Below, piece after piece: positions 4,341-52,344 of a stretch of 64,000 bases of DNA (position 1 is the first letter of the stretch; every line of letters begins with the position of its first letter). The stretch comes from a virus (lineage: Duplodnaviria; Caudoviricetes): the IMG/VR virus record IMGVR_UViG_3300032327_000792; one strand, 5' to 3'. Under the pieces are notes generated by a model. It had not been told where the DNA came from and searched no databases. It saw only the letters and a program-made list of their open reading frames with translations. The position numbers and the translations under genes were made by a program.

Positions 4341-4346
4341 TAAATA
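4341..4346 (+). promoter_or_regulatory. T4-late-like TAAATA box
   Basis: CATAAATATAAGACCATG upstream of the 1143-aa wedge gene. Confidence 0.55.
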
Positions 4347-25138: not shown

Positions 25139-25166
25139 AAAGGGCGTTCGCGCCCTTTACTTTTTT
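25139..25166 (+). terminator. Intrinsic terminator closing the structural block
   Basis: AAAGGGCG-TTCG-CGCCCTTT hairpin followed by ACTTTTTT. Confidence 0.8.
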
Positions 25167-25184
25167 CAAAATATGTTGTACAAT
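25156..25184 (+). promoter_or_regulatory. sigma70-type promoter for the tailoring operon
   Basis: TTTACT-17 nt-TACAAT ending 6 nt before the ATG at 25191, so the mRNA would be nearly leaderless. Confidence 0.55.
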
Positions 25185-25190
25185 TAATCT

Positions 25191-25496
25191 ATGAATACTG
25201 ATCAACTAGTTTCTCACTCACGAGCTCGATTTGAGCACGTTGCTACTCGTCGACTGCTCAAAGAAAAATACCAAGGCAAAATGACATTTGCATGGAATGG
25301 CGGCATGTTTCGAGCAACTCCTGAAATGATAACATTTTTAAGTTTGTACGGCGACAAGCCAATTGTTGTACAAGATTTATACGAAAATCCCGTTGAAGTA
25401 AATGCCAAGCAAGTGTGCGAGTTTATGAAGGAACGATTGCAAGAGCAAATGAATGCATGGTTAGTGGAATTTCAAGAAGCCAACAAAAACAGATGA
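25191..25496 (+). CDS. Hypothetical protein (101 aa)
   Basis: First gene after the promoter; ATGA-coupled to the next gene. Confidence 0.7.
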   Translation: MNTDQLVSHSRARFEHVATRRLLKEKYQGKMTFAWNGGMFRATPEMITFLSLYGDKPIVVQDLYENPVEVNAKQVCEFMKERLQEQMNAWLVEFQEANKNR

Positions 25497-26299
25497 CCCA
25501 AGGTGCATTGATTTTTGCATTCAACAATGATCAACTTGATTATTTGAGTATGGCCAATTGGAGTGCTCAAAACATTCGCAGACATCTTGGATTGCCAACT
25601 TGTGTGGTCACTGACATTGAACATATTCCGTCACACTATAATTTTGAACAAATAGTATTGGCCACAGCTCGCGAACCCAGCATGCGGCACTTTGGCGACA
25701 TTGACCAAGTAGTTACCTGGTACAATGGCAATAGAGTGGATGCCTATGACATCAGTCCCTGGGATCATACCTTGGTTTTGGATGCCGACTATGTGGTGGC
25801 CAGTGACCAATTAAGGGTATTGTTTTCATGTTCGGAAGATTTTTTAGCACATCAACAAGCCTACGATATAACAGGGCTACAATCATTTGACGATTTAAAT
25901 CAATTTGGTAAGTATCGAATGCCCATGTGGTGGGCCACTGTGATGTTATTTCGACGTAGCACTGGCGTCAAACTACTGTTTGATTCAATGAAAATGATTA
26001 GAGAAAATTGGTCGCACTATAGACAAGTTTATCAAATTCCTAGATCTACCTATCGCAACGATCATGCACTGAGTATTGCATTGGGCATGGTCAATGGACA
26101 CGCACTCGATCACGCACAAATTCCCTGGGATCTGGCATCGTTGACTTCGGGACAAACGTTAGAATACATTGAGCAAGATTGCTATAAAATTAATTTTATC
26201 AATTCTCAAAATCAGCTCAAATGGATACATATAAAAAATCAAGATTTTCATGCCATGGGCAAACGACATTTGGGGAACCTAATTGCCAATTCAAAGTGA
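25493..26299 (+). CDS. GT-A-fold glycosyltransferase-like protein
   Basis: Start moved to the ATGA-coupled ATG at 25493. 'ALIFAFN...DYLSMA' N-terminus, DxD motif 'TLVLDADY', 'WWATVMLF', 'RNDHALSIA'. Confidence 0.65.
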   Translation: MTQGALIFAFNNDQLDYLSMANWSAQNIRRHLGLPTCVVTDIEHIPSHYNFEQIVLATAREPSMRHFGDIDQVVTWYNGNRVDAYDISPWDHTLVLDADYVVASDQLRVLFSCSEDFLAHQQAYDITGLQSFDDLNQFGKYRMPMWWATVMLFRRSTGVKLLFDSMKMIRENWSHYRQVYQIPRSTYRNDHALSIALGMVNGHALDHAQIPWDLASLTSGQTLEYIEQDCYKINFINSQNQLKWIHIKNQDFHAMGKRHLGNLIANSK

Positions 26300-27071
26300 A
26301 CGTGGGTACCTAATACCAGCGGTCAACACCCGAGATGTTGACTACGTGGCATGTGCTCGACAGCTGGCACAAAGTATTAAATTATGGCATCCAACTGCAC
26401 AAATATGCTTGCTCACTGACCAACCATACAGTGATCCAGTGTTTGACTTTGTAAAAATATTGCCGTACGGAGATTGTAGCAATAATCATAGTTGGAAATT
26501 AAGCAATGACTGGCAATGTTTTGCTGGTAGTCCATTTAGACAAACAATCAAACTAGAAGCAGACATGATTGCCGCTGGTCCAGTGGATCATTGGTGGACC
26601 TTGTTTGAAAAAAAGGACCTTGTGATCAGCAAGGGTTGTAGAGATTTTTACGACAATATCAGTGATTGCAGATTTTATAGAAAACTGTTTGATAAAAATC
26701 AATTGCCTGACGTATACAATGCTATAACCTATTGGAGAGTCAGTCCATTGGCCAAACAGTTTTTTCAACATGTAAAAAATATTTTTGAACACTGGGACAG
26801 TTATAAAACATTGTTGAAGTTTCCAGATGCAGAACCTACTACAGACGTGGTATATGCCATGGCCGCAACAATTATGGGAGAGGAACATTGTACATTGCCA
26901 GACAATCTAGGCCCCAGTATAGTCCACATGAAACGCCATGTTATACCAACACTGACCTCAGATTGGACTCAAGAATTGATCTGGGAAAACACCGACCCGG
27001 GGCTAAGAATCAACACAGTGGCACAATGGGGATTTGTTCACTACCATAACAAACAATGGCGAGTAGAATGA
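26283..27071 (+). CDS. GT-A-fold glycosyltransferase-like protein, paralogue of the preceding gene
   Basis: 'RGYLIPAVN...DYVACARQLA', 'SPFRQTIKLEADM' (ExD in place of DxD), 'TTDVVYAMA', C-terminal 'HYH'. Confidence 0.62.
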   Translation: MPIQSERGYLIPAVNTRDVDYVACARQLAQSIKLWHPTAQICLLTDQPYSDPVFDFVKILPYGDCSNNHSWKLSNDWQCFAGSPFRQTIKLEADMIAAGPVDHWWTLFEKKDLVISKGCRDFYDNISDCRFYRKLFDKNQLPDVYNAITYWRVSPLAKQFFQHVKNIFEHWDSYKTLLKFPDAEPTTDVVYAMAATIMGEEHCTLPDNLGPSIVHMKRHVIPTLTSDWTQELIWENTDPGLRINTVAQWGFVHYHNKQWRVE

Positions 27072-27415
27072 GCAAAGATACAACAGATAATTTTTGGTCA
27101 GCATGGGGTCAGCAAATTGAATCAACGTTGCCAATATTCTATAGACTATACCATGATGATCAAGGATATCCTTTATTTTACAGCATGGAAGATTTACCAG
27201 GTAATTACATTGACATTGATCAAGAAACATATGCACTGTCGTCATCCAAAGTGCGAGTAGTCAATGGAAAATTAAAAAATAATACTGTGGCACTCACTGC
27301 TAAACTAAGACCCGGTACTATAGGAACAGCATGTCATTACAAAGATATTTGTATAGTTGTGTCCGAAGATCAAAAACATATTAAATGGAGGTTTAAGCAG
27401 AATGACCAAGATTGA
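27068..27415 (+). CDS. Hypothetical protein
   Basis: ATGA-coupled start at 27068; 115 aa. Confidence 0.65.
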   Translation: MSKDTTDNFWSAWGQQIESTLPIFYRLYHDDQGYPLFYSMEDLPGNYIDIDQETYALSSSKVRVVNGKLKNNTVALTAKLRPGTIGTACHYKDICIVVSEDQKHIKWRFKQNDQD

Positions 27416-28328
27416 CATAGCAGATTTGGACTGCATATATCTCTCCTACGACGAACCACAGAAGGAAGAATTCTGGGTAAAGATACGCAACATGGTGCCA
27501 TGGGCCCGACGTGTGGATGGAGTCAAAGGCAGTGATGCCGCACACAAGGCAGCAGCTGCGGCCAGTGACACTGAACGATTTGTTTTGATTGATGGTGACA
27601 ACTTGCCTGACGAGAAGTTTTTTAACTTGACTTTAGAGTTAAAGGATGATCGGTATGAATCAGCGGTGTTTCGCTGGAGAGCTCGTAATCATGTCAATGG
27701 CTTGATGTACGGCAACGGTGGACTGAGTTCATGGACACGGTCATTTGTGAACACTATGAAAACACATGAAATCACTGACGGCAGAGACGAAACTGTGGTG
27801 GAGTTTTGTTTTGATCCATTGTACTGGGCCATGCACGATTGCTATTCAACCACATATCCCAATGGATCGGCTCGTCATGCTTGGCGTGCAGGATTCCGCG
27901 AAGGTGTCAAGATGTGCTTGAACAAAGGCTCGAAACCCACAGTCACAGAGTTTCGAGATCGTGTGCATCAACGCAACTTAGACCATTTGACCATATGGCA
28001 CAATGTGGGTGCAGATGTAGATTACGGATTATGGTCCATTGCTGGCGCAAGAATGGGCACATACATGACCATGCTCACTGATTGGGATTATCGACAGGTG
28101 CAGAGTTTTGATGCCTTGGAAGAATTATGGTCAACAGTGGCAGAACAAGATCCGGAGTTATTGGCCAACCGTGTGGCTGAGGATTTGTCTACACAACTGG
28201 ATTTACCTGTGATGTCAATGTTTGCAGAACAAAGTTGCTTCTTCAAGAGACACTATCGTAGTAATTGGCACAATCAAGGTGTGATGGTTAGAGAAATTGA
28301 TGTTATTAGACAACAGGAAGGTTGGTAA
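27402..28328 (+). CDS. GT-A-like glycosyltransferase
   Basis: GGAGG RBS before the ATG at 27402; 'DCIYLSYDEP...RVDGVKGSDAAHKAAA...FVLIDGDN' with DxD; 'AWRAGFREGVKM'. Confidence 0.6.
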   Translation: MTKIDIADLDCIYLSYDEPQKEEFWVKIRNMVPWARRVDGVKGSDAAHKAAAAASDTERFVLIDGDNLPDEKFFNLTLELKDDRYESAVFRWRARNHVNGLMYGNGGLSSWTRSFVNTMKTHEITDGRDETVVEFCFDPLYWAMHDCYSTTYPNGSARHAWRAGFREGVKMCLNKGSKPTVTEFRDRVHQRNLDHLTIWHNVGADVDYGLWSIAGARMGTYMTMLTDWDYRQVQSFDALEELWSTVAEQDPELLANRVAEDLSTQLDLPVMSMFAEQSCFFKRHYRSNWHNQGVMVREIDVIRQQEGW

Positions 28329-28329
28329 A

Positions 28330-29427
28330 TTGAGTTGGACATGCGCCGCCATTGATCACGGTGTAACAGTTTTCCCTAACGGTAAAATTGGTCCTTGTTG
28401 TCAAGTTGCCAGCGACTATTTAAAACCTATATCAGAATTATCAAATCCTAATAGATTTATAGACTTAAAAACACAAGATTGCCCTCAGGAACACCCATGC
28501 AGTAAATGTGCTGCCGCGGAATATAACGGATTAAAAAGTTACAGAAGCATGTTCAATGAAACAGTAACACCTGCTGCAGGACTACAATTTGTTGATATTA
28601 GAAATACCAATTTTTGTAATTTAAAATGTAGATATTGTGGACCACATTTTAGCAGCCAATGGGCAGAAGAACTTGATAGATTTCCTATAATACAAAGTCA
28701 AGACCTATTTGATTATAAAAAGTTGTTGATTACCGATTCACTGCACTGGATGTACTTTACCGGCGGTGAACCCTTGATATCCAGCGACCACTGGAAATTA
28801 CTTGAGGAATTGATTGATGCCGGGAAATCCTTTCAGATATCACTGATGTATAATACTAATTTAACTACAATAAAGTATAAAGATAAAAATATCATTGATA
28901 TTTGGAAAAAGTTCAAAAATGTTAACATACAATGCAGCATTGATGCTGTTGGTGAACCATTGGAATACATCAGATCCGGAACCAGTTGGCCTAAAATAAA
29001 ATCAAATCTAGAACAACTATTAGAAAACTCACAAAATAATATTAATATTGGCTTATCTCCAGTATTAAGTATTTTAAATATTTGGTTCATTGACGAATTA
29101 TACAAGTATGCCAAGTCAAATAATATCAAAGTTTACCCGATAGTACTGACTGGTCCAGACTATCTAGCATTAAATGTAGTGCCAGACAATTTAAAATCAT
29201 TGGCACTGGATAAAATCAATGCCATTGAATCTAGTTACAACATTGATAAAGAGATGGTACTACAAATTAAAAATTTAATCAATAACAATATTAACCAATG
29301 TCTATTTGCACAAACTATATCACATATACTACTATTAGACAATCTACGAGGTGAAAAATTGTTTGATCTACTGCCTTTTAAATCTATAGCCATTGACAAT
29401 ATTTTGAAAAATCACGAATATGAATAA
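28330..29427 (+). CDS. Radical SAM enzyme #1 with N-terminal Twitch/SPASM-like domain
   Basis: 'CAAIDHGVTVFPNGKIGPCC', 'CSKC', CxxxCxxC 'CNLKCRYC', 'FTGGEPL'. Start placed at TTG 28330 after AGGAAGG; the track start is 28297. Confidence 0.88.
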   Translation: MSWTCAAIDHGVTVFPNGKIGPCCQVASDYLKPISELSNPNRFIDLKTQDCPQEHPCSKCAAAEYNGLKSYRSMFNETVTPAAGLQFVDIRNTNFCNLKCRYCGPHFSSQWAEELDRFPIIQSQDLFDYKKLLITDSLHWMYFTGGEPLISSDHWKLLEELIDAGKSFQISLMYNTNLTTIKYKDKNIIDIWKKFKNVNIQCSIDAVGEPLEYIRSGTSWPKIKSNLEQLLENSQNNINIGLSPVLSILNIWFIDELYKYAKSNNIKVYPIVLTGPDYLALNVVPDNLKSLALDKINAIESSYNIDKEMVLQIKNLINNNINQCLFAQTISHILLLDNLRGEKLFDLLPFKSIAIDNILKNHEYE

Positions 29428-30835
29428 CAAAGACGACAATGTTACAACGGATTTTAAATCTATATTCCTAAGTTCAGCAGAGCAAATGAAATCCAATCTA
29501 GGATCAGCACTCTGTTTGGCCAAATGGAAACAAGTTAGCCTACATCTACCAACTGGACTCAACAACAGTTGTTATCATCCACCATTGCACGTAATTGATG
29601 CCAATGTATTAAAAGATAATCCCAGTGCTTTGCATAACACAGCACACAAAAAAGAGCAACGCAAGATCATGCTCAAGCAAGAGCGTCCACAAGAGTGCTC
29701 TTACTGCTGGACAATGGAGGATAACGGCAAACTAAGTGATAGACACTATCGATCAGGTGAACCATGGGCGGCCAAAGACTTTGATGCAATAACCAATTCC
29801 AACGGAGATGAAGATGTTATACCTAGTTATGTGGAAGTTAATTTTAATCACGCTTGCAATCTTAAATGTAGTTACTGTAGTCCTCAATTTAGCAGTTCCT
29901 GGCAACAGGAAGTGGATCAGTTTGGCGGTTATCCTACTAGCACTGAACACAATGCTCCTAGTCACTTCACTGGTCGTAACAGGCCAATACCTGTAAGAGA
30001 AGAGAACCCCTATGTGGATGCATTTTGGCAATGGTGGCCCACGCTGTATCCAGAATTAGCACACTTCCGTATGACTGGCGGTGAGCCCATGCTGGACAAA
30101 AACACCTATAGAGTATTTGATTATGTGTTGGCCAATCCCAAACCAGACCTACATCTAAATGTAACATCAAACTTTTCTGTGGATGAACGTTCATGGAACC
30201 GATACTTGGGCTATGTAAAGCAGTTGTGTGAGGGTCAAAAGATTGAACACTTTATGCAGTTTGTGAGTCTGGACTCGTGGATGGAGCAAGCGGAATACAT
30301 TCGTGACGGGTTGGATTTTGATTTGCTTTGGGACAGAGTGAATCAATTCTTAACTGAAATTCCAGGACGTAATTCAATTACTTTTATTGTGACCATGAAC
30401 AATCTCAGTGTCACTGGACTGGGTAAGTTGATGGCTGGTATACTGGGACTACGTAAAATATATTCACAAACATATCAACGTGTGTGGTTCGACACTCCGG
30501 TGTTACGTACACCCACATGGCAAAGCCTGCAATTGTTGCCCGAAAGCTACGTGGACCAACTGGAACAAACATGGGCGTGGATGATGAAAAACTTAGAAAC
30601 TGTCGATGATCCATTTCACGGATTCAAAGATTATGAATTGTCTAGATTGGACAGAGACATTGCCTGGATGCGAGATGGGCAGAAATTAGATGCGCAATAT
30701 GTTCAACAAAACAAAGCAGACTTTTACCGTTTCTTTGCAGAACACGATCGTAGACGTGGTACTGATTTTTTAGCAACATTTCCAGAAATGACTGCATGGT
30801 GGAAAGAATGTGAGTACCATGCTAGGCAAGCGTAA
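29420..30835 (+). CDS. Radical SAM enzyme #2 (CxHPP subtype)
   Basis: 'LCLAKW...NSCYHPP', 'CSYCW', 'CNLKCSYC', 'MTGGEPM'. Confidence 0.9.
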   Translation: MNNKDDNVTTDFKSIFLSSAEQMKSNLGSALCLAKWKQVSLHLPTGLNNSCYHPPLHVIDANVLKDNPSALHNTAHKKEQRKIMLKQERPQECSYCWTMEDNGKLSDRHYRSGEPWAAKDFDAITNSNGDEDVIPSYVEVNFNHACNLKCSYCSPQFSSSWQQEVDQFGGYPTSTEHNAPSHFTGRNRPIPVREENPYVDAFWQWWPTLYPELAHFRMTGGEPMLDKNTYRVFDYVLANPKPDLHLNVTSNFSVDERSWNRYLGYVKQLCEGQKIEHFMQFVSLDSWMEQAEYIRDGLDFDLLWDRVNQFLTEIPGRNSITFIVTMNNLSVTGLGKLMAGILGLRKIYSQTYQRVWFDTPVLRTPTWQSLQLLPESYVDQLEQTWAWMMKNLETVDDPFHGFKDYELSRLDRDIAWMRDGQKLDAQYVQQNKADFYRFFAEHDRRRGTDFLATFPEMTAWWKECEYHARQA

Positions 30836-31955
30836 GTTAATAGTTGACACATTTAGTGAAATATATGACTTAATAGAATCCCAAGCAGATGATTGTTTTT
30901 GGGAGTTAAAAGAGCATGAAACTGTGCCCGGAGCAATATATGTTATTGGGCGTAATCAGTTTGCCGGCTATCGCTCACGCATTCAAGACATGATGGATAA
31001 TCATGGTTGCCGCATTGTACACAGTAATCCAATGGAAGGATCCGAAACCATTCGCGCCAAGTGTTATGCTCAGGACATGGCACAAGATGTACAATCCGGT
31101 AAGATTTTACTTGTGGGCGGAGGAGATATTGAGCCGGGATGGCCATGTTTAACATATGAAAACTTTCTGCCCAAAGTATTGGACTACGAAGAAAATATTC
31201 AAGCACAAGCTCGTACAGAAGAAATATACGCTAAAACATGCAAGCCTTATAAGTTCTTATTTTTAAACGGACGTGCTAGGCCCACACGCAAGTATCTAAT
31301 AGAACGATTTAAACTGAGTAAGCTGTTGGATCAAGCAGTGTGGACCAACCTAGACTGTAGACTCACACGCTCTACTGATATTCAACTGATGGTCGATAAC
31401 AAGAACTTAATGTATACCGACACGGAAATCAAGTACTTGCCTAAGCAATACGAAGTTGACCGCTACGCTGATCGTGTGGGTCAGGCAAACGCCAGCTTTG
31501 TCAAACTTGATCTATTTGACAACAACTGGGGTGAAATATACTTAAAAGCCGAACCCTATGTCGACACTTACTTTAGTCTGGTAACCGAAACTGTATTTGA
31601 ATATCCTTACAGTTTCCGCACAGAAAAGATAGCCAAACCATTGGCCATGGGCCACCCATGGATAGCTGTGGCCAATGCTGGCTATTATAGAGATATTCGC
31701 AATTTGGGATTTCAAACATTTGATGGTATAATCGATGAATCATTTGACACCATTGATAACAATCAGCAACGAATAGATCGTATAGCTGACATAGTAGAGG
31801 ATTTATGTCAACAAGATCTTGCAAGTTTCTTAAAAGAATGTTATACTGTGTGTAAATACAATCAGCAACATCTCGCGGAAATAAGACTCCAAATACGCAA
31901 AGAATTTCCTGATCGTTTTGCCCAATTTATCCGAAAGCATCGTTTTGATGAATGA
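30819..31955 (+). CDS. Putative glycosyltransferase (GT10-like C-terminal motif), paralogue 1
   Basis: 'FLFLNGRARPTR', 'FSLVTET...RTEKIAKPLAMGHPW...GFQTFDGIIDESFD'. Family assignment is an inference. Confidence 0.5.
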   Translation: MLGKRKLIVDTFSEIYDLIESQADDCFWELKEHETVPGAIYVIGRNQFAGYRSRIQDMMDNHGCRIVHSNPMEGSETIRAKCYAQDMAQDVQSGKILLVGGGDIEPGWPCLTYENFLPKVLDYEENIQAQARTEEIYAKTCKPYKFLFLNGRARPTRKYLIERFKLSKLLDQAVWTNLDCRLTRSTDIQLMVDNKNLMYTDTEIKYLPKQYEVDRYADRVGQANASFVKLDLFDNNWGEIYLKAEPYVDTYFSLVTETVFEYPYSFRTEKIAKPLAMGHPWIAVANAGYYRDIRNLGFQTFDGIIDESFDTIDNNQQRIDRIADIVEDLCQQDLASFLKECYTVCKYNQQHLAEIRLQIRKEFPDRFAQFIRKHRFDE

Positions 31956-33273
31956 TTTAGAATTTCGTAAACAAGTGCTAGACACCAAGAGTGATAGCTT
32001 CTGTGCAGCCAAGTGGTACAATGCCACTATATGGCTAGGATCAGGTATGACCACTAGCTGTCATCATCCCCCTGCACATCGTGTAGACGCAGATGCTGTA
32101 CAAAAGAATCCTAAGTTGTTGCATAACACACAACAAAAGAAGCATGACCGTGAGTTGATGTTAAAGGGCGAACGCCCAGCTGGTTGCGAATACTGTTGGA
32201 AAATTGAAGACATGGGCAGTGATGCTATCAGTGACCGTGTTTACAAATCAAAAATTTATCCTATACAAGCATTGGATCAAGCATTTGCAACTCCGGTTGA
32301 AACAGATGTGGATTTACGCACATTGGAAATTGCGTTTGATCGCACTTGTCAGTTTGCCTGCAGTTATTGTAATCCAGCTTTCTCTAGTACATGGGTTCGA
32401 GATATTGATCGTAATGGTGCTTATACTGGTCTTGTCAGCGACGGCCGCAATCATTTTACTCACAGTCATAGCTCAGCGCAATTGTACCGGTTTGGGGAAA
32501 CAAATCCCTATGCCAAAGCCTTTTTTGCATGGTGGGAATCGGACCTACATAGCACATTAGAAGAACTACGTATCACCGGCGGAGAACCTTTGATGTCTGG
32601 AGAAACCTGGAAGTTGTTGGATTGGTTTAAAGCTAACAAAGGCAAGAGTCAAACAAGACTTGCCATTAACTCAAATCTTGGAGCGGGGGTTGATGTAGAT
32701 CGTTTGATTGACTCAATCGAAGGGTTGGAAGTAGATATCTATACATCAAACGAATCCGTGGGTCTACAAGCAGAGTACATACGCGATGGGCTGGACTGGT
32801 CAGCTTGGTTGGTCAATGTACACAAAATACTCAACAGCAATGTACGCAGATTACACATAATGAATACTATCAACGCATTGTGCTTGGACAGTTTACCAGA
32901 ATTTTTGCAGTTGTTGATTGAATTAAAACATCAATATCAAGACCGTATCAGTTTCACGCTCAACATACTGCGTTTTCCTAGTTTTCAATCACCGTTAGTG
33001 CTCAGTGACGAACTACGCACACATTATCGTGGTCGATTGAACGATGTTTTTGTATGTATGAAAGAATCCAACGTGCTGGAAGAGCATGAGCACAATCATA
33101 TACAACGCTTGATTGACTATTTGGACATTGTTAAAACCCCACACTTGGAAGCATTTGATCGACCAAAATTGCTCAACGATTTTCGAGAGTTCTTTGCCCA
33201 ATATGATCAGCGCAGAGGCAAGAATTTTGCAGAAACATTTCCCAATTTAAAAGAATGGTACAATGGCCTATAA
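31948..33273 (+). CDS. Radical SAM enzyme #3 (CxHPP subtype)
   Basis: 'FCAAKW...TSCHHPP', 'CEYCW', 'CQFACSYC', 'ITGGEPL'; ATG at 31948 preferred. Confidence 0.9.
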   Translation: MNDLEFRKQVLDTKSDSFCAAKWYNATIWLGSGMTTSCHHPPAHRVDADAVQKNPKLLHNTQQKKHDRELMLKGERPAGCEYCWKIEDMGSDAISDRVYKSKIYPIQALDQAFATPVETDVDLRTLEIAFDRTCQFACSYCNPAFSSTWVRDIDRNGAYTGLVSDGRNHFTHSHSSAQLYRFGETNPYAKAFFAWWESDLHSTLEELRITGGEPLMSGETWKLLDWFKANKGKSQTRLAINSNLGAGVDVDRLIDSIEGLEVDIYTSNESVGLQAEYIRDGLDWSAWLVNVHKILNSNVRRLHIMNTINALCLDSLPEFLQLLIELKHQYQDRISFTLNILRFPSFQSPLVLSDELRTHYRGRLNDVFVCMKESNVLEEHEHNHIQRLIDYLDIVKTPHLEAFDRPKLLNDFREFFAQYDQRRGKNFAETFPNLKEWYNGL

Positions 33274-34522
33274 TTACAACAGTACAGAACTGGTACGGAA
33301 TATAGAGTTAACTGAGCGTGAAGAATTCTTATTAAAGGAATCCAAAACATTCTGTATCTATCCTTGGATTCATTTACATGCCTATCCTACCGGCGAAGCC
33401 TATCCATGCTGTCATGCCGAAATGGGTGTGGGTCAAGTTGGAAACTGCCGTGATAAAACACTGGAACAAATATGGTATGACGACCCCATGAACGAATTGC
33501 GTGTGAACATGTTGCAAGAGCGCAAAAGTTCTGCATGCCAACGTTGTTATGAACAGGAAGAAGCAGGATTCTTTTCAGGACGTCGCAGCGCCAACAAGCA
33601 CCACGGACACCATATAAGCAATCTTCAAGGCACACCTTTTCAAATGTCATACTGGGACATACGGTTCAGTAATTTGTGCAATCTAAGCTGTCGTAGTTGC
33701 GGGCATATTTTTAGCTCAAGCTGGCATCAAGATCAGGCTCAATTGGCCGGCGGTGATTGGGCCATAAAAAACCCAGTGTTGAATTACGCAGGACGCACAG
33801 AAATAGACATGTGGGACCAACTAATACCGCACTTGGATTATGTAGAGCAAATATACTTTGCAGGTGGCGAACCTCTGATGATGAAAGAACACTACAACAT
33901 CTTGGATGAACTAGAACGTCGCGGACGCTTTGATGTACGACTAATATACAACACAAACTTTACGCATACCCGACTAAAAGATCGTGAAGTATTTGATTAC
34001 TGGCGCAAGTTCCGATTTGTAGCAGTGGGCGCCAGTTTGGATGCTGAAGGTCCAAGAGCCGAATATATTAGAAAAGGCACCCATTGGGATCAGGTCGAAC
34101 GCAATAGACGTACCATGATGGAGATTTGCCCTAACGTGGACTTTTATATTTCACCTACCTTGAGCATATTGAATGCTCTGCATCTTCCGGACTTTCACAG
34201 AGACTGGGTAGAAAAAGGTTTAATAAAAGCGCAGGATTTAAACGTCAACATCCTACAAGATCCTGCTCATTTACGCATAGACATCGCCACAACAGAATAC
34301 AAACAAAAGATCAACAGTAAATTACAGGATCATTTGGCGTGGTTACGTCCGCAAGATTCTTTGAACCGTGCTACAGTGGGATTTGAGGCAGCTGTTAACT
34401 TTATGATGACCACAGACAACACAGCACTGATACCTAAGTTTTGGCAAAAAATGACTGAACTTGACCGTATACGCAAAGAAGAGTTGTTGTCGGTAATTCC
34501 TGAATTGTCGGAATTAAAATGA
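33263..34522 (+). CDS. Radical SAM enzyme #4 with N-terminal Twitch-like domain
   Basis: 'FCIYPWIHLHAYPTGEAYPCC', 'CQRCY', 'CNLSCRSC', 'FAGGEPL'. Confidence 0.9.
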   Translation: MAYNYNSTELVRNIELTEREEFLLKESKTFCIYPWIHLHAYPTGEAYPCCHAEMGVGQVGNCRDKTLEQIWYDDPMNELRVNMLQERKSSACQRCYEQEEAGFFSGRRSANKHHGHHISNLQGTPFQMSYWDIRFSNLCNLSCRSCGHIFSSSWHQDQAQLAGGDWAIKNPVLNYAGRTEIDMWDQLIPHLDYVEQIYFAGGEPLMMKEHYNILDELERRGRFDVRLIYNTNFTHTRLKDREVFDYWRKFRFVAVGASLDAEGPRAEYIRKGTHWDQVERNRRTMMEICPNVDFYISPTLSILNALHLPDFHRDWVEKGLIKAQDLNVNILQDPAHLRIDIATTEYKQKINSKLQDHLAWLRPQDSLNRATVGFEAAVNFMMTTDNTALIPKFWQKMTELDRIRKEELLSVIPELSELK

Positions 34523-35721
34523 ACGTACCACACGCAAAATTCTGTGTATTGCCTTGGGTCAGCTTAGAAACCAGTCCCATTGGTACTGTACGTCCTTGTT
34601 GTTTGGCCGATGACGAGATTGTGGACAATAACGGCCACAAGTTCCGACTGTTGAACAGCACGTTTGCTGACATACAGTCTAGCAAGCACATGCAACAGCT
34701 CAGACAGGAGTTTTTACAAGGACAACAACCACAAACATGCCGTAAATGTTGGGCAGTAGAAGATGCCGGCGGAACCAGCAAACGTATGCACACCTTGGAC
34801 AGACTAAAACACATGGGTATTAGTCCAGACTGGACTGCAGATGCCAAATCCTTGATGTTTTTGGATCTAAAACTAGGCAATATATGTAATTTAAAATGTC
34901 GTATATGCGGGTCATGGTCATCGAGTCAATTTGCCACTGAAGAATTAAAATTTGTTAACGATAGTAAAAAAGAATCATTTCATTATGAAATGTTAAAGGC
35001 AGGTGCATGGCCCAGAGAAAACAGTCAATTTTGGACAGAATTAAACAACTCACTGACAGACATACGTTACTTGGAATTTACCGGAGGAGAGCCGTTTTTA
35101 ATTCAGGAACATTTTGATTTGTTACAGACACTGGTAGATCAAGGAGTAGCTGACCAAATTGAAATACATTACAACACCAATGGTACACAGTATCCTGAGC
35201 ATGCTGAATCTATTTGGCGTCATTTTAAGCATGTTGAAATAGCATTCAGCATAGATGACGTGGAGTCTAGATTTGAATATCAGCGTACCAATGCTGTGTG
35301 GACAGAAGTATGTGCTAATATTGAACGGTTCCGACAAATGCGAGCACGCAACACAAATATCTCCCTGCAAGTATGTTGCACGGTCAATGTATTCAATGTC
35401 ATGTATCTTGCGGATGTAGCTGTGTGGATTGATCAACAAAACTTTGATTATGTATATTGGAATATGTTACATGATGCGCCATGGTTAAGTATAGCACATT
35501 TACCTCAAGATGCTAAAATAGCAATAGCCAATCGTTTGAACATTGAACCGTTTCCAGACAAATATCTCACGGAATTAAAAAAGATTATTGAATTTATGTA
35601 CCTTGGTCAAAGTCATGCCAAAGAAAATATGATAAAAAATATACAACAGTTGGATTTACGTAGAAATGAATCATTAAAAACAGTGGCTCCAGAATTGGCG
35701 GATATATTAAATTATGACTAA
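34519..35721 (+). CDS. Radical SAM enzyme #5 with N-terminal Twitch-like domain
   Basis: 'FCVLPWVSLETSPIGTVRPCC', 'CRKCW', 'CNLKCRIC', 'FTGGEPF'. Confidence 0.9.
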   Translation: MNVPHAKFCVLPWVSLETSPIGTVRPCCLADDEIVDNNGHKFRLLNSTFADIQSSKHMQQLRQEFLQGQQPQTCRKCWAVEDAGGTSKRMHTLDRLKHMGISPDWTADAKSLMFLDLKLGNICNLKCRICGSWSSSQFATEELKFVNDSKKESFHYEMLKAGAWPRENSQFWTELNNSLTDIRYLEFTGGEPFLIQEHFDLLQTLVDQGVADQIEIHYNTNGTQYPEHAESIWRHFKHVEIAFSIDDVESRFEYQRTNAVWTEVCANIERFRQMRARNTNISLQVCCTVNVFNVMYLADVAVWIDQQNFDYVYWNMLHDAPWLSIAHLPQDAKIAIANRLNIEPFPDKYLTELKKIIEFMYLGQSHAKENMIKNIQQLDLRRNESLKTVAPELADILNYD

Positions 35722-37027
35722 ACAAGTACCTGACTCACTGTGTCTAGCACCTTGGACTCACACATATCTGAGCCCGCAAACAGAACGCAGAATGTGCTGT
35801 GCCAGTCGTGAACCTGCGCAATCATTTCGCCAATACATTGACACAGAATCTGGCACAGGTGTTTATGCGCCCATCACGCTGGAACAACACTGGAATTCTG
35901 AACACATGCGTTCAGTGCGTCGTCGCATGATTGCAGGTGAAACTTTGCCCGAATGTGAAGTATGCAACAACAAACTGTTGAACACCGATGTTTACCGTAG
36001 CTATTTTTGGAATATGTTCAAAGACCAGTACGATCAGCTGATGTCAGCCACTGACAGCGATACAGGACATTATAATGGAAAACCCATCAGCTGGGACTAT
36101 CGTTTCAGCAACTTATGTAACTTTAAATGCCGTATGTGCGGCGACATGTTGAGCAGTTCATGGGAAACAGAACAGCGACAAAACAACATGGTCAATTGGG
36201 AAGATCCTAAGAATAATTGGCAACTGCCCGAGGTAAGATCAGCCATAACTAAGTTTCAAGATGAACAGATTGAACAAGAATTTGCCGAGGCAGTAGAACA
36301 AGGTCGAGTTGAAGAAGTATATTGGGTAGGAGGCGAACCCTTGATGTACGAACAACACTGGCGCTACATGCGTAGAATCATTGAATTAGGACACGGCCGA
36401 CGTGTGTATGCAAGATACAACACAAACTTATCTCGAGTATATTACAAAGGCATTAACTTGTTTCGAGATATTCTGGATCATGTTCGTGACTATCAAATTT
36501 GTGCTAGTTTGGATGGCACCGGCGTAATTGGAGAGTATATACGCACAGGACTTGACTATGAGCAATGGCTCTCCAACTACAGACTGGCCTGCAAACATCG
36601 ACGCTACAGTCGACAGTGTAGAATTGACTTCACACTGACATTGCCCGGATTGTTCGACATTGAAAACATGGTGAAACTTGCTGAAGAAACTAATTCTGAA
36701 ATATTGGCCAAAGTTGTGTTTGGGTTTTCGCCAGACATTATACTGAGCCCACTGGCACTGCCGCGAGAATTGCTGGACACAGAAGTAGATCGTTTGGTAA
36801 ACAACATGCCAACAGGTGCACTGCGCGATGTATTGCTACAGTTAAAAACACGTCCTACATTTGAGGAACAATGGCCAGATACTTATCAACAAGGACTTGC
36901 ACGTGGCAAAGCTCGTGTGTTACAATTAGAATATATTAGAAAAGACTCTGTTACTCTTGCAAATATATTAAACAAAAATCCAAAAATATCGGAATGGTAT
37001 GAAAATATTAGAACAAATACAAATTAA
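35714..37027 (+). CDS. Radical SAM enzyme #6 with N-terminal Twitch-like domain
   Basis: 'LCLAPWTHTYLSPQTERRMCC', 'CEVC', 'CNFKCRMC', 'WVGGEPL'. Confidence 0.9.
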   Translation: MTKQVPDSLCLAPWTHTYLSPQTERRMCCASREPAQSFRQYIDTESGTGVYAPITLEQHWNSEHMRSVRRRMIAGETLPECEVCNNKLLNTDVYRSYFWNMFKDQYDQLMSATDSDTGHYNGKPISWDYRFSNLCNFKCRMCGDMLSSSWETEQRQNNMVNWEDPKNNWQLPEVRSAITKFQDEQIEQEFAEAVEQGRVEEVYWVGGEPLMYEQHWRYMRRIIELGHGRRVYARYNTNLSRVYYKGINLFRDILDHVRDYQICASLDGTGVIGEYIRTGLDYEQWLSNYRLACKHRRYSRQCRIDFTLTLPGLFDIENMVKLAEETNSEILAKVVFGFSPDIILSPLALPRELLDTEVDRLVNNMPTGALRDVLLQLKTRPTFEEQWPDTYQQGLARGKARVLQLEYIRKDSVTLANILNKNPKISEWYENIRTNTN

Positions 37028-38075
37028 TCTTAGACACAAAGATGGACAACTATTGCCAATTTATATCGACGTCTACGATAATTCTTTGAGTCGTAAATGG
37101 TTGCCGGCACTGAGTCGGATTATTGATAAAAAATATTTGTTAGAAAAACATTATTGTTTTTTAGGGTTTGAGCAAAACTGTCGCAATGCTAAATTTCTAA
37201 TAGATCAAATCAATTACAGTATTGAACAGATTAATTTGGCAGATCTAGGTTATCAAATCAACGATTACTTTACTTTAGAAAATTCATTGGTAGAAGGCCC
37301 AATTGAGCCGGAACAGCCCGGACAACGGCCTAACCAAGAGCATTTCAATAATCTTCACAGATATTTTGAAGACTTGCAAGGAACCAGCGGAAATATTAGT
37401 CCGTACTATAACAAAGCCAATTCAACAACAAGATATCATATACGACAACTCAATCTTTTGTGTCACGAATTTGAGACCTGGAATCTCAGTAATCGGCGAG
37501 CCATCACTGCTCCTGATTGGCGAAGACCTAGCCAATTGATGTGCTGGCTCAATGCTCCAAGATTTACACTAGAGACAGCGGATTTTGAGTTGTTTGGCGT
37601 TGATACTTTAAATAGGCCTCTAGGTGGAGTATTTGTTGGAGTCAACAAAGCAGTTGGAAAACATCACTGGGAAGTATTCAATGACGAAGGACGCGACAGC
37701 AGAATAGGCGAACTTACTACTACATCTTTAAGACCGCAGACTGAAGCAGCAGCAGATTTTGATATTGAATGGGGTTTAGATCCGTCGGACGGACCTTGGC
37801 AAAAAGAAAATTTAAATAATTTTCGCCAATGGTTAGTCAACAATGGATTTGATCCTGCCGACAAAAGTCTTACAATTGGTCATCCCCAGATTGGACAGGT
37901 CGATCTCATGAGATCTTTTGGAACAACAGATCATAATATCATTTGGAAAATGTTAAATGAGCACCTAGATGTGGGTTCTATTGTATTCGCTGGCCATCAA
38001 GTTGTTTACGACTATAATTGGACCGATGATAACTATATAGAGTTACAGATTGAACGAATTCGACAAGGAAATTAA
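36999..38075 (+). CDS. Hypothetical protein in the radical SAM operon
   Basis: 358-aa ORF overlapping the upstream stop; no motif recognised. Confidence 0.7.
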   Translation: MKILEQIQINLRHKDGQLLPIYIDVYDNSLSRKWLPALSRIIDKKYLLEKHYCFLGFEQNCRNAKFLIDQINYSIEQINLADLGYQINDYFTLENSLVEGPIEPEQPGQRPNQEHFNNLHRYFEDLQGTSGNISPYYNKANSTTRYHIRQLNLLCHEFETWNLSNRRAITAPDWRRPSQLMCWLNAPRFTLETADFELFGVDTLNRPLGGVFVGVNKAVGKHHWEVFNDEGRDSRIGELTTTSLRPQTEAAADFDIEWGLDPSDGPWQKENLNNFRQWLVNNGFDPADKSLTIGHPQIGQVDLMRSFGTTDHNIIWKMLNEHLDVGSIVFAGHQVVYDYNWTDDNYIELQIERIRQGN

Positions 38076-38077
38076 TT

Positions 38078-38179
38078 ATGAAGTGGATTAAAAATTTATA
38101 CAACCGTATTCGATTAGAAATACGCTACAGAAAAAAATTAAAAGAACTTCGCAAACGAGATCCGTTTATCTACAAATGA
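38078..38179 (+). CDS. 33-aa basic peptide ending RKRDPFIYK (not in the ORF track)
   Basis: MKWIKNLYNRIRLEIRYRKKLKELRKRDPFIYK*; AAGGA RBS; exactly fills the gap and is ATGA-coupled to the carbamoyltransferase. Confidence 0.78.
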   Translation: MKWIKNLYNRIRLEIRYRKKLKELRKRDPFIYK

Positions 38180-39669
38180 AATTAAAGCATATACTGGGCG
38201 TCAGCGCCGGATTCCATGACGCAGCTGCCACTGTGATTCGCAACGACGGAGAAATTATATTTGCCGGACACAGTGAGCGTTATTCAAAACAAAAGAATGA
38301 TGCCAATTTAAGTCCAGGCTTACTTGCTGAGTTAGTTAATTATAGTATACAACATGTTGCGTATTATGAAAGACCTTGGATGAAACAACTACGTAATTTT
38401 CGTGCTGGACAAGGTGTTGAGTGGGACAAATTAACAGTGATGCAAATACTCAAACAACAAATTGGACGAGAATTTGGTACATTTCCGGGCAAGATTACCA
38501 CACACAATCATCATTTAAGTCACGCGGCTGCTGGATTTCAAACTTCACCTTACAACCGTGCCACAGTAGTGGTCATAGATGCCATCGGCGAATTTGATAC
38601 CGTATCAATCTGGGGAGCAGAATACGATTCGACGGGTCGAGCAACTTATCAACGACTTTGGGGACAACAGTATCCTCACTCAATCGGACTGTTTTATAGT
38701 GCAATCACTCAGCGAGTTGGTCTACACCCACTAGACGAAGAATATATCACCATGGGAATGTCAGGTTGGGGAAAACCTGCATGGTATCAACGCATGCATA
38801 GAGATCTTGTTGCTGATGACTACAATATTGAATTTCAAGATAATTTACACTTAGGTATCAGCAATGAATATTTAAACATGGCTACCAACGAGGATCTAGC
38901 TGCTAGTGCGCAGATGCTGGCAGAAACTTTAATAGGGCAAGTAATGGCTCGTGCTCGTGGATTTGGATTCAGCACTAATTTGGTCTATATGGGCGGTGTT
39001 GCACTCAACTGTTTGGCCAATAGAAATTTAGGAAATCATTTTGATAATATATGGATTATGCCTTGTCCTGGCGATGCTGGTTCTAGTCTTGGTGCCGCAG
39101 CTCTTGCACTGGGTAAAAAAATACATTGGCGTGATGCGTACTTGGGACACTGTATACCGGGGCCGTATCCTGTTAACCAGTTGTTGGATCATCTTGTTAC
39201 TACTGGTATTGTGGGTGTTGCTTCCGGCAGAGCCGAGTTTGGACCCAGAGCCTTGGGCAACAGAAGTTTGCTCGCAGACCCAAGAGGACCAGAAATAAAG
39301 GATCGGGTAAATGAAATCAAGCGCAGACAAAAATTTAGACCGTTTGCCCCAGTCATTCTTGCTGAGCACGTACACAAGTACTTTGATGTGCCCACTGGGT
39401 TTAGTGATACCAGTTACATGCAAGTTGTGGCTACTTGCCGTAGGCCTGATCTATTTCCTGCTATTGTGCATGTGGACGGTACTTCAAGAATACAAACAGT
39501 GCCTGCAAATGGTTCGGGCATCAGAGAACTACTAGAAAAATGGTATGTGATGACCGGGTGTCCTATGTTGCTCAACACCAGTTTGAACATCAGAGGCGAA
39601 CCCATGGTCAACGATCGCGCAGATGCTGATCGCTTTGAACAACTATATGGTGTTGAGGTCTGTAGCTAA
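38176..39669 (+). CDS. O-carbamoyltransferase (NodU/CmcH/TobZ family)
   Basis: 'SAGFHDAAA', 'HHLSHAA', 'DAIGE', 'GGVALNC', 'GDAG', 'EFGPRALGNRS', 'RPFAP', 'HVDGTSRIQTV', 'LNTSLN'. Confidence 0.95.
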   Translation: MKLKHILGVSAGFHDAAATVIRNDGEIIFAGHSERYSKQKNDANLSPGLLAELVNYSIQHVAYYERPWMKQLRNFRAGQGVEWDKLTVMQILKQQIGREFGTFPGKITTHNHHLSHAAAGFQTSPYNRATVVVIDAIGEFDTVSIWGAEYDSTGRATYQRLWGQQYPHSIGLFYSAITQRVGLHPLDEEYITMGMSGWGKPAWYQRMHRDLVADDYNIEFQDNLHLGISNEYLNMATNEDLAASAQMLAETLIGQVMARARGFGFSTNLVYMGGVALNCLANRNLGNHFDNIWIMPCPGDAGSSLGAAALALGKKIHWRDAYLGHCIPGPYPVNQLLDHLVTTGIVGVASGRAEFGPRALGNRSLLADPRGPEIKDRVNEIKRRQKFRPFAPVILAEHVHKYFDVPTGFSDTSYMQVVATCRRPDLFPAIVHVDGTSRIQTVPANGSGIRELLEKWYVMTGCPMLLNTSLNIRGEPMVNDRADADRFEQLYGVEVCS

Positions 39670-40833
39670 TTGCTTTAACCTATCATACTTACTGCCAACA
39701 AACAATTCTTGATTGTGCCTGGCATCTTCTGCCAATTGTTCGAACCATACATGTAAATCTTGATTACTAAGATTGCGTACTGTATCAATTAGTTTGATAA
39801 AGCGTTTGGTGTTGTCGGTTACTGTATCGTAACTGTTGTCAATGTATTGATCGTAGGTTCTATATCCAAGTTTGCGTAATGTAGCAAGACTGTGTGGTGC
39901 GCCAAAAATCACAAATGGTTGTCCGTGACGTATGGGTTTGAACGTTTTTTCTGTTAAAAAAGCTCCGCCCGATCCGTCGGCATCAAAAAATGTTTCTAAT
40001 ACCAAGTGACAATAGCTGTCTTCAAAATGCTCCGGAACCAATGTCCAGTGACTGTTGTGTTCGTCTGGAGTCAGGGTATCACAGGTATATGGACCACGAT
40101 CTAAAAATTCATCCATGTAAACATCAAGTCCTGGAAATTGATGTATTTGTATAGGATTATCCAAATATTGATCTCCTATACATTGATTGCCGTAACTCCA
40201 GTAACTGTTGTTCAGCAGTTGTTCACGGTGAAAATAACTGACTATGGTACTACGCCACCATTTGTGTATGCGACTCAACAAGGTAAACTGACGACTGCGA
40301 GGACGATTATGTACGTGACATCCTGCTTGCGGACGGTTGTTCCAAACAACGCCATTGCGCCAGTAAAATAATTCGTGGTCTGGAAAATAAACAAAGTTTG
40401 ACAATGCCTTGCATGCAGTGTTGCCGCTGACAAATCTATAGCAGTCTGCGGGTAATTGGTGTTGTTGACATAATTGATCTAGGCGTGTTTTTTCGTGGGC
40501 AGGGTTGTCGCCCTCATGATAATAAAACAACACTCTCATCTGTTGTTTCTGCAACAATGTCCGCACCTGCTCACTCATCAACGCAAAATAATCTTGATCA
40601 AAATCAAACCATCCAATGCCCACTGGGTAGTATGCATTGTCAGGAACAGGTTGATCGATGTAGCTCACGGACATTGGATAATCATGATCCTGGCAGAAAT
40701 ACAATAACCTACACGGCACAATGTATGGAAATGTGTCTCCCATACCATGATAACCGTTTGATGCATCCATCATTGGTGCCAGATTAGGATAAGGTCTGCC
40801 CAGATGTTTTTGATCGAATACAAAGTTAAACAC
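39643..40833 (-). CDS. Putative glycosyltransferase (GT10-like C-terminal motif), paralogue 2
   Basis: 'FTLLSRIHKWWR', 'HLVLET...FLTEKTFKPIRHGQPF...LGYRTYDQYIDNSYD'. Confidence 0.5.
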   Translation of the reverse strand: MFNFVFDQKHLGRPYPNLAPMMDASNGYHGMGDTFPYIVPCRLLYFCQDHDYPMSVSYIDQPVPDNAYYPVGIGWFDFDQDYFALMSEQVRTLLQKQQMRVLFYYHEGDNPAHEKTRLDQLCQQHQLPADCYRFVSGNTACKALSNFVYFPDHELFYWRNGVVWNNRPQAGCHVHNRPRSRQFTLLSRIHKWWRSTIVSYFHREQLLNNSYWSYGNQCIGDQYLDNPIQIHQFPGLDVYMDEFLDRGPYTCDTLTPDEHNSHWTLVPEHFEDSYCHLVLETFFDADGSGGAFLTEKTFKPIRHGQPFVIFGAPHSLATLRKLGYRTYDQYIDNSYDTVTDNTKRFIKLIDTVRNLSNQDLHVWFEQLAEDARHNQELFVGSKYDRLKQLATDLNTI

Positions 40834-47640: not shown

Positions 47641-47820
47641 TTAGGCTCCGTAGTATCCTTGAGAATTTTCAAGATTTCGATCTTGCAACAGTTGATCTAC
47701 TTTAAGTACAGCTTCGGCTCGTTCTTGATCAGTCATTTCGTAGCACTTGGGCTGGCGAGCAAGATCACGCATCAAAGGATAGCTAAAATTTGGTTGTGGC
47801 TGAAACAATCGTCGGATCAT
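47641..47820 (-). CDS. Hypothetical protein (59 aa)
   Basis: ATGA-coupled start at 47820 (MIRRLFQPQ...). Confidence 0.6.
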   Translation of the reverse strand: MIRRLFQPQPNFSYPLMRDLARQPKCYEMTDQERAEAVLKVDQLLQDRNLENSQGYYGA

Positions 47821-52297: not shown

Positions 52298-52344
52298 GGC
52301 TGTGTCCTTAATCAAAGTTTAACAAAATTTAATACTGTAGAACT

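Follow-up and report, generated by a model that had tools for sequence, protein, structure and literature searches.

A fixed set of N-terminal-twitch radical SAM paralogues in a jumbo-phage cassette with glycosyltransferases and a carbamoyltransferase

The 64,000-nucleotide stretch of DNA analysed here (IMG/VR record IMGVR_UViG_3300032327_000792; hereafter the window) represents part of the genome of a T4-like jumbo phage that has not been cultured, and at positions 28297-37027 it carries six intact plus-strand open reading frames (ORFs), R1-R6, whose products of 376-471 residues are all radical S-adenosylmethionine (SAM) proteins. By gene content and gene order, R2-R6 belong to the invariable core of an operon that is widespread in jumbo phages; the core further comprises two probable glycosyltransferases (X0 and X1), a conserved protein (X2), a 33-residue micro-protein and an O-carbamoyltransferase. 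We give a probability of roughly 0.55 to the reading that this cassette is a line of radical enzymes that tailor, step by step, a sugar or glycan built on an acceptor in the cytoplasm, possibly virion proteins.

Results

Six members of one radical SAM family

All six proteins share one order of motifs: C-x13-18-C(C), a CxxC about 35-50 residues further on, then CX3CX2C and GGEP. A preliminary description of this DNA, made from the bare sequence, had divided the copies into two subtypes, and the motifs bear this out: in R2 and R3 the CC is replaced by CYH/CHH-PP (the CxH subtype), and R1, R4, R5 and R6 have the CC. R2 and R3 are each other's closest paralogues at 32% identity and the remaining pairs share 17.5-28%, so that the old duplication proposed in the description agrees with the 17.5-32% identity among the six copies. 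Its term 'near-tandem' is also apt, because the 381-residue X1, which is not a radical SAM protein, lies between R2 and R3. Its start of the array at 28330 has to be corrected, as this position falls 33 nt inside R1, whose ORF begins at 28297.

The same description had placed an auxiliary cysteine module at the N terminus of each protein, and here both the motifs and the position of Pfam SPASM (PF13186) matches agree with it. These matches cover residues 31-96 of R4 and 9-78 of R5, with the Radical_SAM domain downstream; R6 scores 17.6 bits, under the gathering score of 21.5 bits, and no SPASM match was reported for R1, R2 or R3, yet the same Cys columns align in them. For Radical_SAM (PF04055), R1, R5 and R6 score above the gathering score and R2, R3 and R4 below it. 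The arrangement, which the description had set against the C-terminal auxiliary cluster of canonical SPASM and twitch enzymes, is not a novelty, since it is already catalogued in NCBIfam as NF033640 (N_Twi_rSAM, 'twitch domain-containing radical SAM protein'). All six proteins pass the curated cut-off of 170 bits for this model with 245-383 bits and cover its full length (model positions 1-3 to 387-398 of 398), and 0 of 14 control genomes reach that cut-off. NF033640 has the same N-terminal Cys module, CX3CX2C and GGEP as the window proteins, and R4 is the copy nearest to the family consensus and to the bacterial members. As an annotation subfamily without function, the model is silent on the five-paralogue phage set, on the CxH subtype and on the partner genes.

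Each copy has four to five cysteines ahead of the core and past the helix just a CxxC, which fits a one-cluster twitch domain and not SPASM; none of the six shows the full SPASM pattern of seven cysteines (CX2CX5CX3C plus an extra Cys) with a second auxiliary cluster. In each copy, CX3CX2C is predicted to bind the [4Fe-4S] cluster that cleaves SAM, and the N-terminal Cys module a single auxiliary cluster. Among the 58-66 distinct orthologues of each core copy, practically all retain the Cys motifs, CX3CX2C and GGEP, and C-x15-20-CC is present in 58 of 58 R6 orthologues. In an alignment of 112 family sequences the Cys positions are invariant or more than 90% conserved, and the conserved residues are C31, C49, C92, C95, C139, C143, C146, GGEP, N232, S258, D260, R270 and R404. 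Judged by conservation and profile scores, the motifs of the six copies are not due to chance and the genes are genuine N-terminal-twitch radical SAM (NF033640) members, which probably encode active enzymes. Pfam and NCBIfam scans reported no PqqD-like recognition element for ribosomally synthesized and post-translationally modified peptides (RiPPs) in the six proteins, although divergent elements can escape such hidden Markov models. The genes and their partners are listed in Table 1.

Table 1. Features of the cassette and its surroundings in the window
Feature	Position	Strand	Description
Terminator-like hairpin	25139-25158	+	Intrinsic-terminator-like, strong: 8 pairs, 5 GC, T run; behind fibre-like gene 24137-25120
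Upstream gene 1	25191-25496	+	No assigned function; same unit
Upstream gene 2	25415-26299	+	No assigned function; same unit
Upstream gene 3	26283-27071	+	No assigned function; same unit
Upstream gene 4	27056-27415	+	No assigned function; same unit
X0	27402-28328	+	GT-A/GT2-like protein, DGD motif; core
R1	28297-29427	+	376 residues; N-twitch radical SAM, CC subtype; NF033640 246 bits; accessory copy
R2	29420-30835	+	471 residues; CxH subtype; NF033640 310 bits; orthologues 67-85% identical; core
X1	30810-31955	+	381 residues; predicted GT-B glycosyltransferase, ET..TEK..K motif; between R2 and R3; core
R3	31918-33273	+	451 residues; CxH subtype; NF033640 299 bits; core
R4	33263-34522	+	419 residues; CC subtype; NF033640 383.5 bits; SPASM 39.8 bits; core
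R5	34519-35721	+	400 residues; CC subtype; NF033640 342 bits; SPASM 26.9 bits; core
R6	35714-37027	+	437 residues; CC subtype (C-x17-CC); NF033640 280 bits; core
X2	36999-38075	+	Conserved protein; no family or fold match; core
Micro-protein	38078-38179	+	33 residues, very basic, ends ..ELRKRDPFIYK; stop overlaps carbamoyltransferase start
O-carbamoyltransferase	38176-39669	+	NodU/CmcH-type; Pfam Carbam_trans_N and Carbam_trans_C; phrog_1601; last gene of the unit
Y1 and Y2	39643-41908	-	X1 GT-B family; X1 profile E 8e-26 (Y1), 2e-22 (Y2)
Y3	41907-43502	+	531 residues; residues 307-461 match X0 profile, E 6e-12
Sugar aminotransferase and NDP-sugar epimerase/dehydratase	43474-45536	-	DegT/DnrJ/EryC1 aminotransferase, E 6e-61; NAD-dependent nucleoside diphosphate (NDP)-sugar epimerase/dehydratase, E 7e-41

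Five copies in stable orthologous groups

For R4, 179 relatives were confirmed among viral contigs, and synteny was counted in the best 80 of these, which are 70-78% identical to it and lie on contigs of up to 353 kb. In the 80 contigs the order X0-R2-X1-R3-R4-R5-R6-X2-(33-residue gene)-carbamoyltransferase is constant, as is the position right behind fibre genes, and the cassette orthologues are 60-85% identical. The five-copy set is common to well over a hundred related phage contigs. Where the flanks are complete (54 loci), five radical SAM copies are found in 38 loci, six in 12 and seven in 4. The variable slots in other phages, between X0 and R2, R4 and R5, and R5 and R6, are occupied by GT-B-like or epimerase-like genes or by additional radical SAM genes.

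In a tree of 248 family members, computed with FastTree only and carrying long-branch warnings on its deeper nodes, R2, R4, R5 and R6 each form a single clade with local support of 98-100 (R2: 99), R3 forms one clade bar a single genome-database row, and R1 forms a small clade on a long branch. The preliminary description had proposed a sequential assembly line and had said beforehand that random copy number without orthologous groups would count against it. The copy number is not random, the core clades are stable and the order is fixed in the 80 contigs; single-clade copies in a fixed order fit non-redundant, sequential roles and lend the proposed line support. Of the six copies assigned to that line, R2-R6 stand as the fixed set and R1 drops out as a rare accessory: its orthologues are confined to about 10 related contigs, in every case between X0 and R2, a distribution by which it is a lineage-specific add-on. 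That well over a hundred contigs have kept the five-enzyme set, at 60-85% identity, speaks strongly for a multi-step product that is specific and under selection.

Predicted structure of R4

The AlphaFold2 model of R4, built with 112 family sequences, has a predicted local distance difference test score (pLDDT) of 95.1 and a predicted template modelling score (pTM) of 0.91. Foldseek and exhaustive VIA-align comparisons of this model retrieved radical SAM cores only, in alignments that begin at about residue 127 and reach Z 11-13 over about 210-220 residues at 13-18% sequence identity. The closest solved core is that of the sugar-nucleoside decarboxylase BlsE (7vob; Z 13.1, root-mean-square deviation 3.6 over 218 residues), followed by anSME (4k36; Z 12.9), CteB (Z 12.6), SkfB (Z 12.0), viperin (Z 11.8), SuiB (Z 11.7), MoaA (1tv7; Z 11.3) and DesII (Z 11.0); the peptide-modifying enzymes ChlB and EpeE are also among the closest, and BtrN is absent from the 50 structural matches listed.

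The cores of anSME, BlsE, MoaA, SkfB and CteB belong to the same radical SAM sub-group as that of R4. In these enzymes, and in BtrN, the auxiliary module lies behind the core, whereas in R1-R6 it lies ahead of it. No solved chain, C-terminal SPASM domains included, aligned with the N-terminal module of R4 (residues about 27-110) in these comparisons, which were made with sequential aligners.

Partner genes of the cassette

Of all cassette genes X0 is conserved best, at 72-86% identity and a mean column identity of 75%. It falls with Atlas clusters named 'Glycosyltransferase 2-like' (score 0.99), its matches to Glyco_tranf_2_3 are weak, and its true start is probably the ATG at 27402, which is preceded by GGAGG. 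By its AlphaFold2 model (pLDDT 94.2, pTM 0.91), X1 is a glycosyltransferase of GT-B fold: the top Foldseek and VIA matches are all GT-B enzymes, over residues 1-381 and at Z 10.6-13.1, and the best include an Actinobacillus glucosyltransferase, the T4 beta-glucosyltransferase and the Helicobacter pylori alpha-1,3-fucosyltransferase. The ET..TEK..K motif of X1 may be compared with the donor-binding motif of family GT10, which we take to end in TEK. Assignment to GT10 finds no backing in Pfam Glyco_transf_10, which gives no match even at E 1, and the match with the H. pylori fucosyltransferase (Z 12.5, 13% identity) is level with those to other GT-B enzymes.

For X2, no match was found in Pfam, PHROGs, PDB sequences or the Atlas, whose model of it is poor, although 642 cluster representatives exist elsewhere. 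In some of these, proteins of 712-775 residues, X2 forms the C-terminal half; the N-terminal halves, of about 400 residues, matched no Pfam family and no gene of the window. Profiles of X0, X1 and X2 found nothing meaningful among PDB sequences, neither Pfam nor PHROGs nor NCBIfam assigned X1, X2, Y1, Y2 or Y3 to a family at E 0.01, and a relaxed family scan over 98 orthologues gave weak GT2 matches alone.

Relatives of Y1 and Y2, downstream of the unit, occupy variable slots in other phages. On the upstream side, the last three of the four genes ahead of X0 are kept there in related phages, and the 119-residue ORF just upstream of X0 is present in 70 loci at about 50% identity. Taken together, the gene context points to sugars as the substrate class.

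A 33-residue protein before the carbamoyltransferase

The micro-gene lies between X2 and the carbamoyltransferase in 70 of 80 related loci. The last 20 residues of its product are invariant over 57 distinct nucleotide versions, the entropy at codon positions 1, 2 and 3 is 15.8, 9.3 and 36.1, and codon differences number 18678 synonymous against 8943 non-synonymous. An invariant C terminus encoded with varying third codon positions indicates that the micro-gene is real. The protein has no Pfam hit. With a degenerate DNA pattern, members of the family were found in at least 120 viral contigs. As a rule they immediately precede a carbamoyltransferase gene, or follow it immediately in the case of ..FIYNH variants, and sometimes they lie by GT-B or radical SAM genes.

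SPASM and twitch enzymes often modify small peptides, and the micro-protein was considered as a substrate of R1-R6. This candidate was demoted because the micro-protein mostly accompanies carbamoyltransferases at loci without radical SAM genes: of 75 loci, 58 have the two genes side by side, and no N-twitch radical SAM gene is present at 44 of these 58. The pairing likewise lowers its chances of being a RiPP precursor. By its genomic distribution the micro-protein appears to be mainly a companion of the carbamoyltransferase; an accessory of the enzyme (SxtK-like), a ribosome-arrest leader peptide and a Tyr-based glycan primer are conceivable roles for it.

Transcription unit and setting

The IMG/VR record of the window is a virus contig rated about 22% complete, and a megablast search of the array region against deposited phages gave no match. 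The first 24 kb encode, by PHROG and Pfam matches, baseplate hub and wedge proteins, a 4700-residue ORF and fibre-like proteins, and all sizeable genes from position 1 to 39669 are on the plus strand. The hairpin behind the last fibre-like gene probably bounds the transcription unit of the array on its upstream side. No comparable plus-strand terminator is present in 25200-39669, that is, up to the end of the carbamoyltransferase gene, so the array is probably part of a single unit of about 14.5 kb; between adjacent array genes there are overlaps of 4-38 nt. A weak sigma-70-like site (TTTACT-17-TACAAT) within 25139-25190 overlaps the hairpin and precedes the ATG at 25191.

The word TAAATA, with plus-strand copies at 4341, 21897, 22653 and 22678, precedes structural genes (at 4354, 22050 and 22709) and is strongly depleted in the whole window (24 observed, 47.7 +/- 6.4 expected). 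To be scarce overall and present ahead of structural genes would suit a promoter word that the rest of the sequence avoids. The T4-type late promoter TATAAATA was rejected as a candidate: none lies near the array, and the two copies in the window are at chance level.

No cassette protein has a 19-residue Kyte-Doolittle window of 1.6 or more, as a membrane helix would, and nothing in the cassette resembles a flippase, a polymerase or a polyprenyl-phosphate transferase.

The family in bacteria and in cultured phages

In the protein collection R4 has at least 7464 significant relatives among 8000 candidates scored. A scan of species-representative genomes, queried with an alignment of three paralogues, found 79 loci of the N-twitch family. 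The best few of them, six loci in all, are evidently the same phage cassette binned into metagenome-assembled genomes (MAGs). In four of them the R4 orthologues are 52-74% identical, the micro-gene and the carbamoyltransferase are present, and the contigs are probably phage contigs. Two of these four, of 183 and 148 kb, are filed under a Haliscomenobacter sp. MAG, one is labelled Pacearchaeota and one belongs to a Legionellales MAG; the name Haliscomenobacter may point to the host or may result from faulty binning.

The remaining loci are bacterial, mostly in Bdellovibrionota and also in Bacteroidota, Acidobacteriota and others, with chromosomal arrays of up to seven copies. At least one member above the NF033640 cut-off was found in 31 of 151 sampled Bdellovibrionota genomes, often in many copies, and one Bdellovibrionales genome of 1.9 Mb has 16 such genes in a few arrays (for example at 792852-803016 and 1068646-1092743 of its contig C1). 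The CxH and CC subtypes co-occur in two Bdellovibrionales chromosomal arrays, which makes the subtypes an old split of the family and not a phage peculiarity.

The neighbourhoods of 15 bacterial loci were tallied (126 neighbour ORFs). Apart from more radical SAM genes, the most frequent families there are GT2 glycosyltransferases (9 ORFs), PhyH dioxygenases (6), GT1 glycosyltransferases, NAD-epimerases/GDP-mannose dehydratases, FkbM methyltransferases and ABC-2 exporter components (3 each), and Acyl_transf_3 and NTP_transferase proteins (2 each); carbamoyltransferase homologues lie near the arrays in 7 loci. These neighbourhoods are an independent pointer to carbohydrate biosynthesis.

The cultured Vibrio phage K566 has four genes with the same N-terminal motif. 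One of them, VPHK566_0308 (14451-15713 of the locus examined, minus strand), is annotated 'hypothetical protein' and adjoins three annotated radical SAM genes; with CX3CX2C at residue 148 and C..CC and CxxC ahead of it, it is the fourth N-twitch radical SAM gene of this phage. The K566 and Bdellovibrionota arrays belong to the same family as the window copies and are just 22-30% identical to them, and homologues of X0, X1 and X2 were not found beside them.

Discussion

In the reading that we prefer, the aminotransferase and the epimerase/dehydratase would make or amend nucleotide sugars, the glycosyltransferases would transfer these sugars, and the O-carbamoyltransferase would carbamoylate the resulting structure. 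Each radical SAM paralogue would edit a different position or act at a different step, by an oxidation, epimerisation, deoxygenation or C-C bond formation initiated by hydrogen abstraction. The acceptor is probably cytoplasmic, since membrane proteins, a flippase and a polymerase are all absent from the cassette, which follows tail-fibre genes; our leading guess is a virion surface or fibre protein. The 4700-residue ORF (7787-21889, plus strand), which starts right behind a baseplate wedge gene, may be a giant protein of the fibre or of host recognition, and it is a candidate for the acceptor of the cassette product. What the analysis shows is that the genes belong to the family, that they are conserved and orthologous, and in which gene context they lie in phages and in bacteria; from this we infer cluster binding, a sugar substrate, the order of the steps and the acceptor. 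In a bolder form, R2-R6 would be a radical assembly line that makes from an ordinary sugar a heavily rearranged carbohydrate, for example a carbocycle or one with branches or C-C cross-links. Once carbamoylated, it would be exposed on the virions of a highly abundant group of jumbo phages in freshwater and sea, and the family would do comparable work on the surface glycans of predatory Bdellovibrionota; we put this forward tentatively, as a serious possibility that we would nevertheless not expect to hold.

Several points weigh against the tailoring of a sugar. Within about 1-2 Z, the structural neighbours of R4 mix peptide-modifying and sugar or nucleotide enzymes, and such near-tied scores mean that the fold leaves the substrate class undecided. 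The T4 DNA beta-glucosyltransferase is among the best matches of X1 (Z 12.6), so the transferases could act on DNA. X2, a core gene, is unaccounted for, and the tally of bacterial neighbours stands without a matched control set. TAAATA is missing ahead of the array unit, which has the weak sigma-70-like site only, and the cassette may thus be timed differently from the fibres. Our literature search found no tested reaction for any N-twitch family member, and we know of no precedent for a single sugar structure that undergoes five to six radical steps.

The alternative that comes nearest is that R1-R6 are protein or peptide maturases, which, as most SPASM and twitch enzymes do, would introduce cross-links, epimerisations or oxidations into a virion fibre protein or into the micro-protein as precursor or scaffold. 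Such a role would suit the presence of anSME, CteB, SkfB, SuiB, ChlB and EpeE among the closest solved cores, the place of the cassette downstream of the 4700-residue protein and the fibre genes, and a micro-gene with 20 invariant C-terminal residues inside the operon; at four loci the micro-gene even lies beside radical SAM genes with no carbamoyltransferase adjacent. We consider it unlikely nonetheless, because the micro-protein adjoins the carbamoyltransferase at most loci, largely where N-twitch genes are missing, and was not found in the bacterial arrays searched, because no PqqD-like domain was reported in the six proteins, and because the neighbours in phages and bacteria alike are sugar enzymes and not peptidases or peptide exporters. 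If the paralogues were instead subunits of one enzyme with a single reaction, for example a hetero-oligomer of the CxH pair R2/R3 and CC copies, the fixed five-gene set and order, the overlaps that couple translation and the co-occurrence of both subtypes in two Bdellovibrionales arrays would be readily understood. Each copy, however, retains the full SAM-cluster motif, GGEP and auxiliary Cys, as independent catalysts would, the copy number in bacteria ranges from 1 to 16 per genome, and solved twitch and SPASM enzymes are known as monomers or homodimers, so that of all the alternatives this one seems to us the least probable.

The product need not be attached to a virion protein. Jumbo T4-like phages often modify their DNA, and a modified base decorated by the transferases and the carbamoyltransferase, with its appendage tailored by the radical SAM enzymes, could shield the genome from host nucleases; the fold of X1 matches the T4 beta- and alpha-glucosyltransferases (Z 12.6 and 11.1) as well as other GT-B enzymes, and all cassette proteins are predicted to be soluble. 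We think this very unlikely, given that the unit sits in the fibre and host-recognition block and not among genes of replication or nucleotide metabolism, that general domain scans of the window showed no base hydroxymethylase, kinase or glycosylase-type gene, and that bacterial members of the family sit among polysaccharide-type genes with exporters and acyltransferases. Equally small is the chance we give to a free small molecule, aminoglycoside-, nucleoside- or cofactor-like, made during infection in place of a polymer-bound glycan. Twitch radical SAM enzymes, a DegT aminotransferase, an NDP-sugar dehydratase, a TobZ/NodU-type carbamoyltransferase and glycosyltransferases together resemble the clusters of aminoglycoside and nucleoside antibiotics, BlsE and DesII are among the structural neighbours of R4, and the predicted solubility of all cassette proteins would suit this product too; for a similar mix of genes in cyanophages, 'antibiotic synthesis genes' were speculated on (PMC12801897). 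Against it are the lack of an exporter or resistance gene in the unit, the constant place right behind the fibre genes, and the variable slots, which mostly hold glycosyltransferases, the usual route of glycan diversification.

The tailoring of a glycan on a cytoplasmic acceptor can be set beside known phage systems. The T4 DNA glucosyltransferases (1c3j, 1y6f), of which the beta enzyme is matched by X1, are soluble phage GT-B enzymes with a cytoplasmic acceptor, and in mycobacteriophages the virion is glycosylated by a phage-encoded system. Unlike the cassette of the window, these systems are not known to include radical SAM enzymes or a carbamoyltransferase. In pelagimyophages, which are T4-like and aquatic, 'Radical SAM cassettes' have been noted in the host-recognition cluster (Zaragoza-Solas et al. 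2020, PMC7029224). These lie by tail-fibre genes and glycosyltransferases and vary between close relatives; they are treated there in one sentence, with no family, copy structure or function. We found no paper that names the N_Twi_rSAM family or describes an N-terminal twitch or SPASM domain, and none relevant on links between radical SAM enzymes and polysaccharides. New here are the stable, fixed-order groups R2-R6, the status of R1 as a rare accessory and the CxH subtype in Bdellovibrionales chromosomes.

NF033640 is a large family, with at least 7,000 relatives of R4 and up to 16 copies in a 1.9-Mb genome, and no tested member was found in the literature. If the tailoring line is real, several new radical reactions on sugars are to be expected, and each paralogue would define one. 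Should the product be a glycan on the virion or the infected cell, it would bear on host recognition, superinfection exclusion and the self-presentation of abundant phages in lakes and oceans. The family has carriers in culture, among them the Vibrio phages K566 and K567 and the Ralstonia phage RsoM2USA, in which the question can be tested.

Beyond the sugar genes downstream of the cassette, the window has a phage-borne porin gene of the Gram-negative outer-membrane type (49207-50298, minus strand; Porin_4, E 1e-44), which is flanked by a DUF2201 metallopeptidase/VWA-like gene (47817-49100, minus strand) and by a gene for a MoxR-type AAA ATPase (51212-52315, minus strand).

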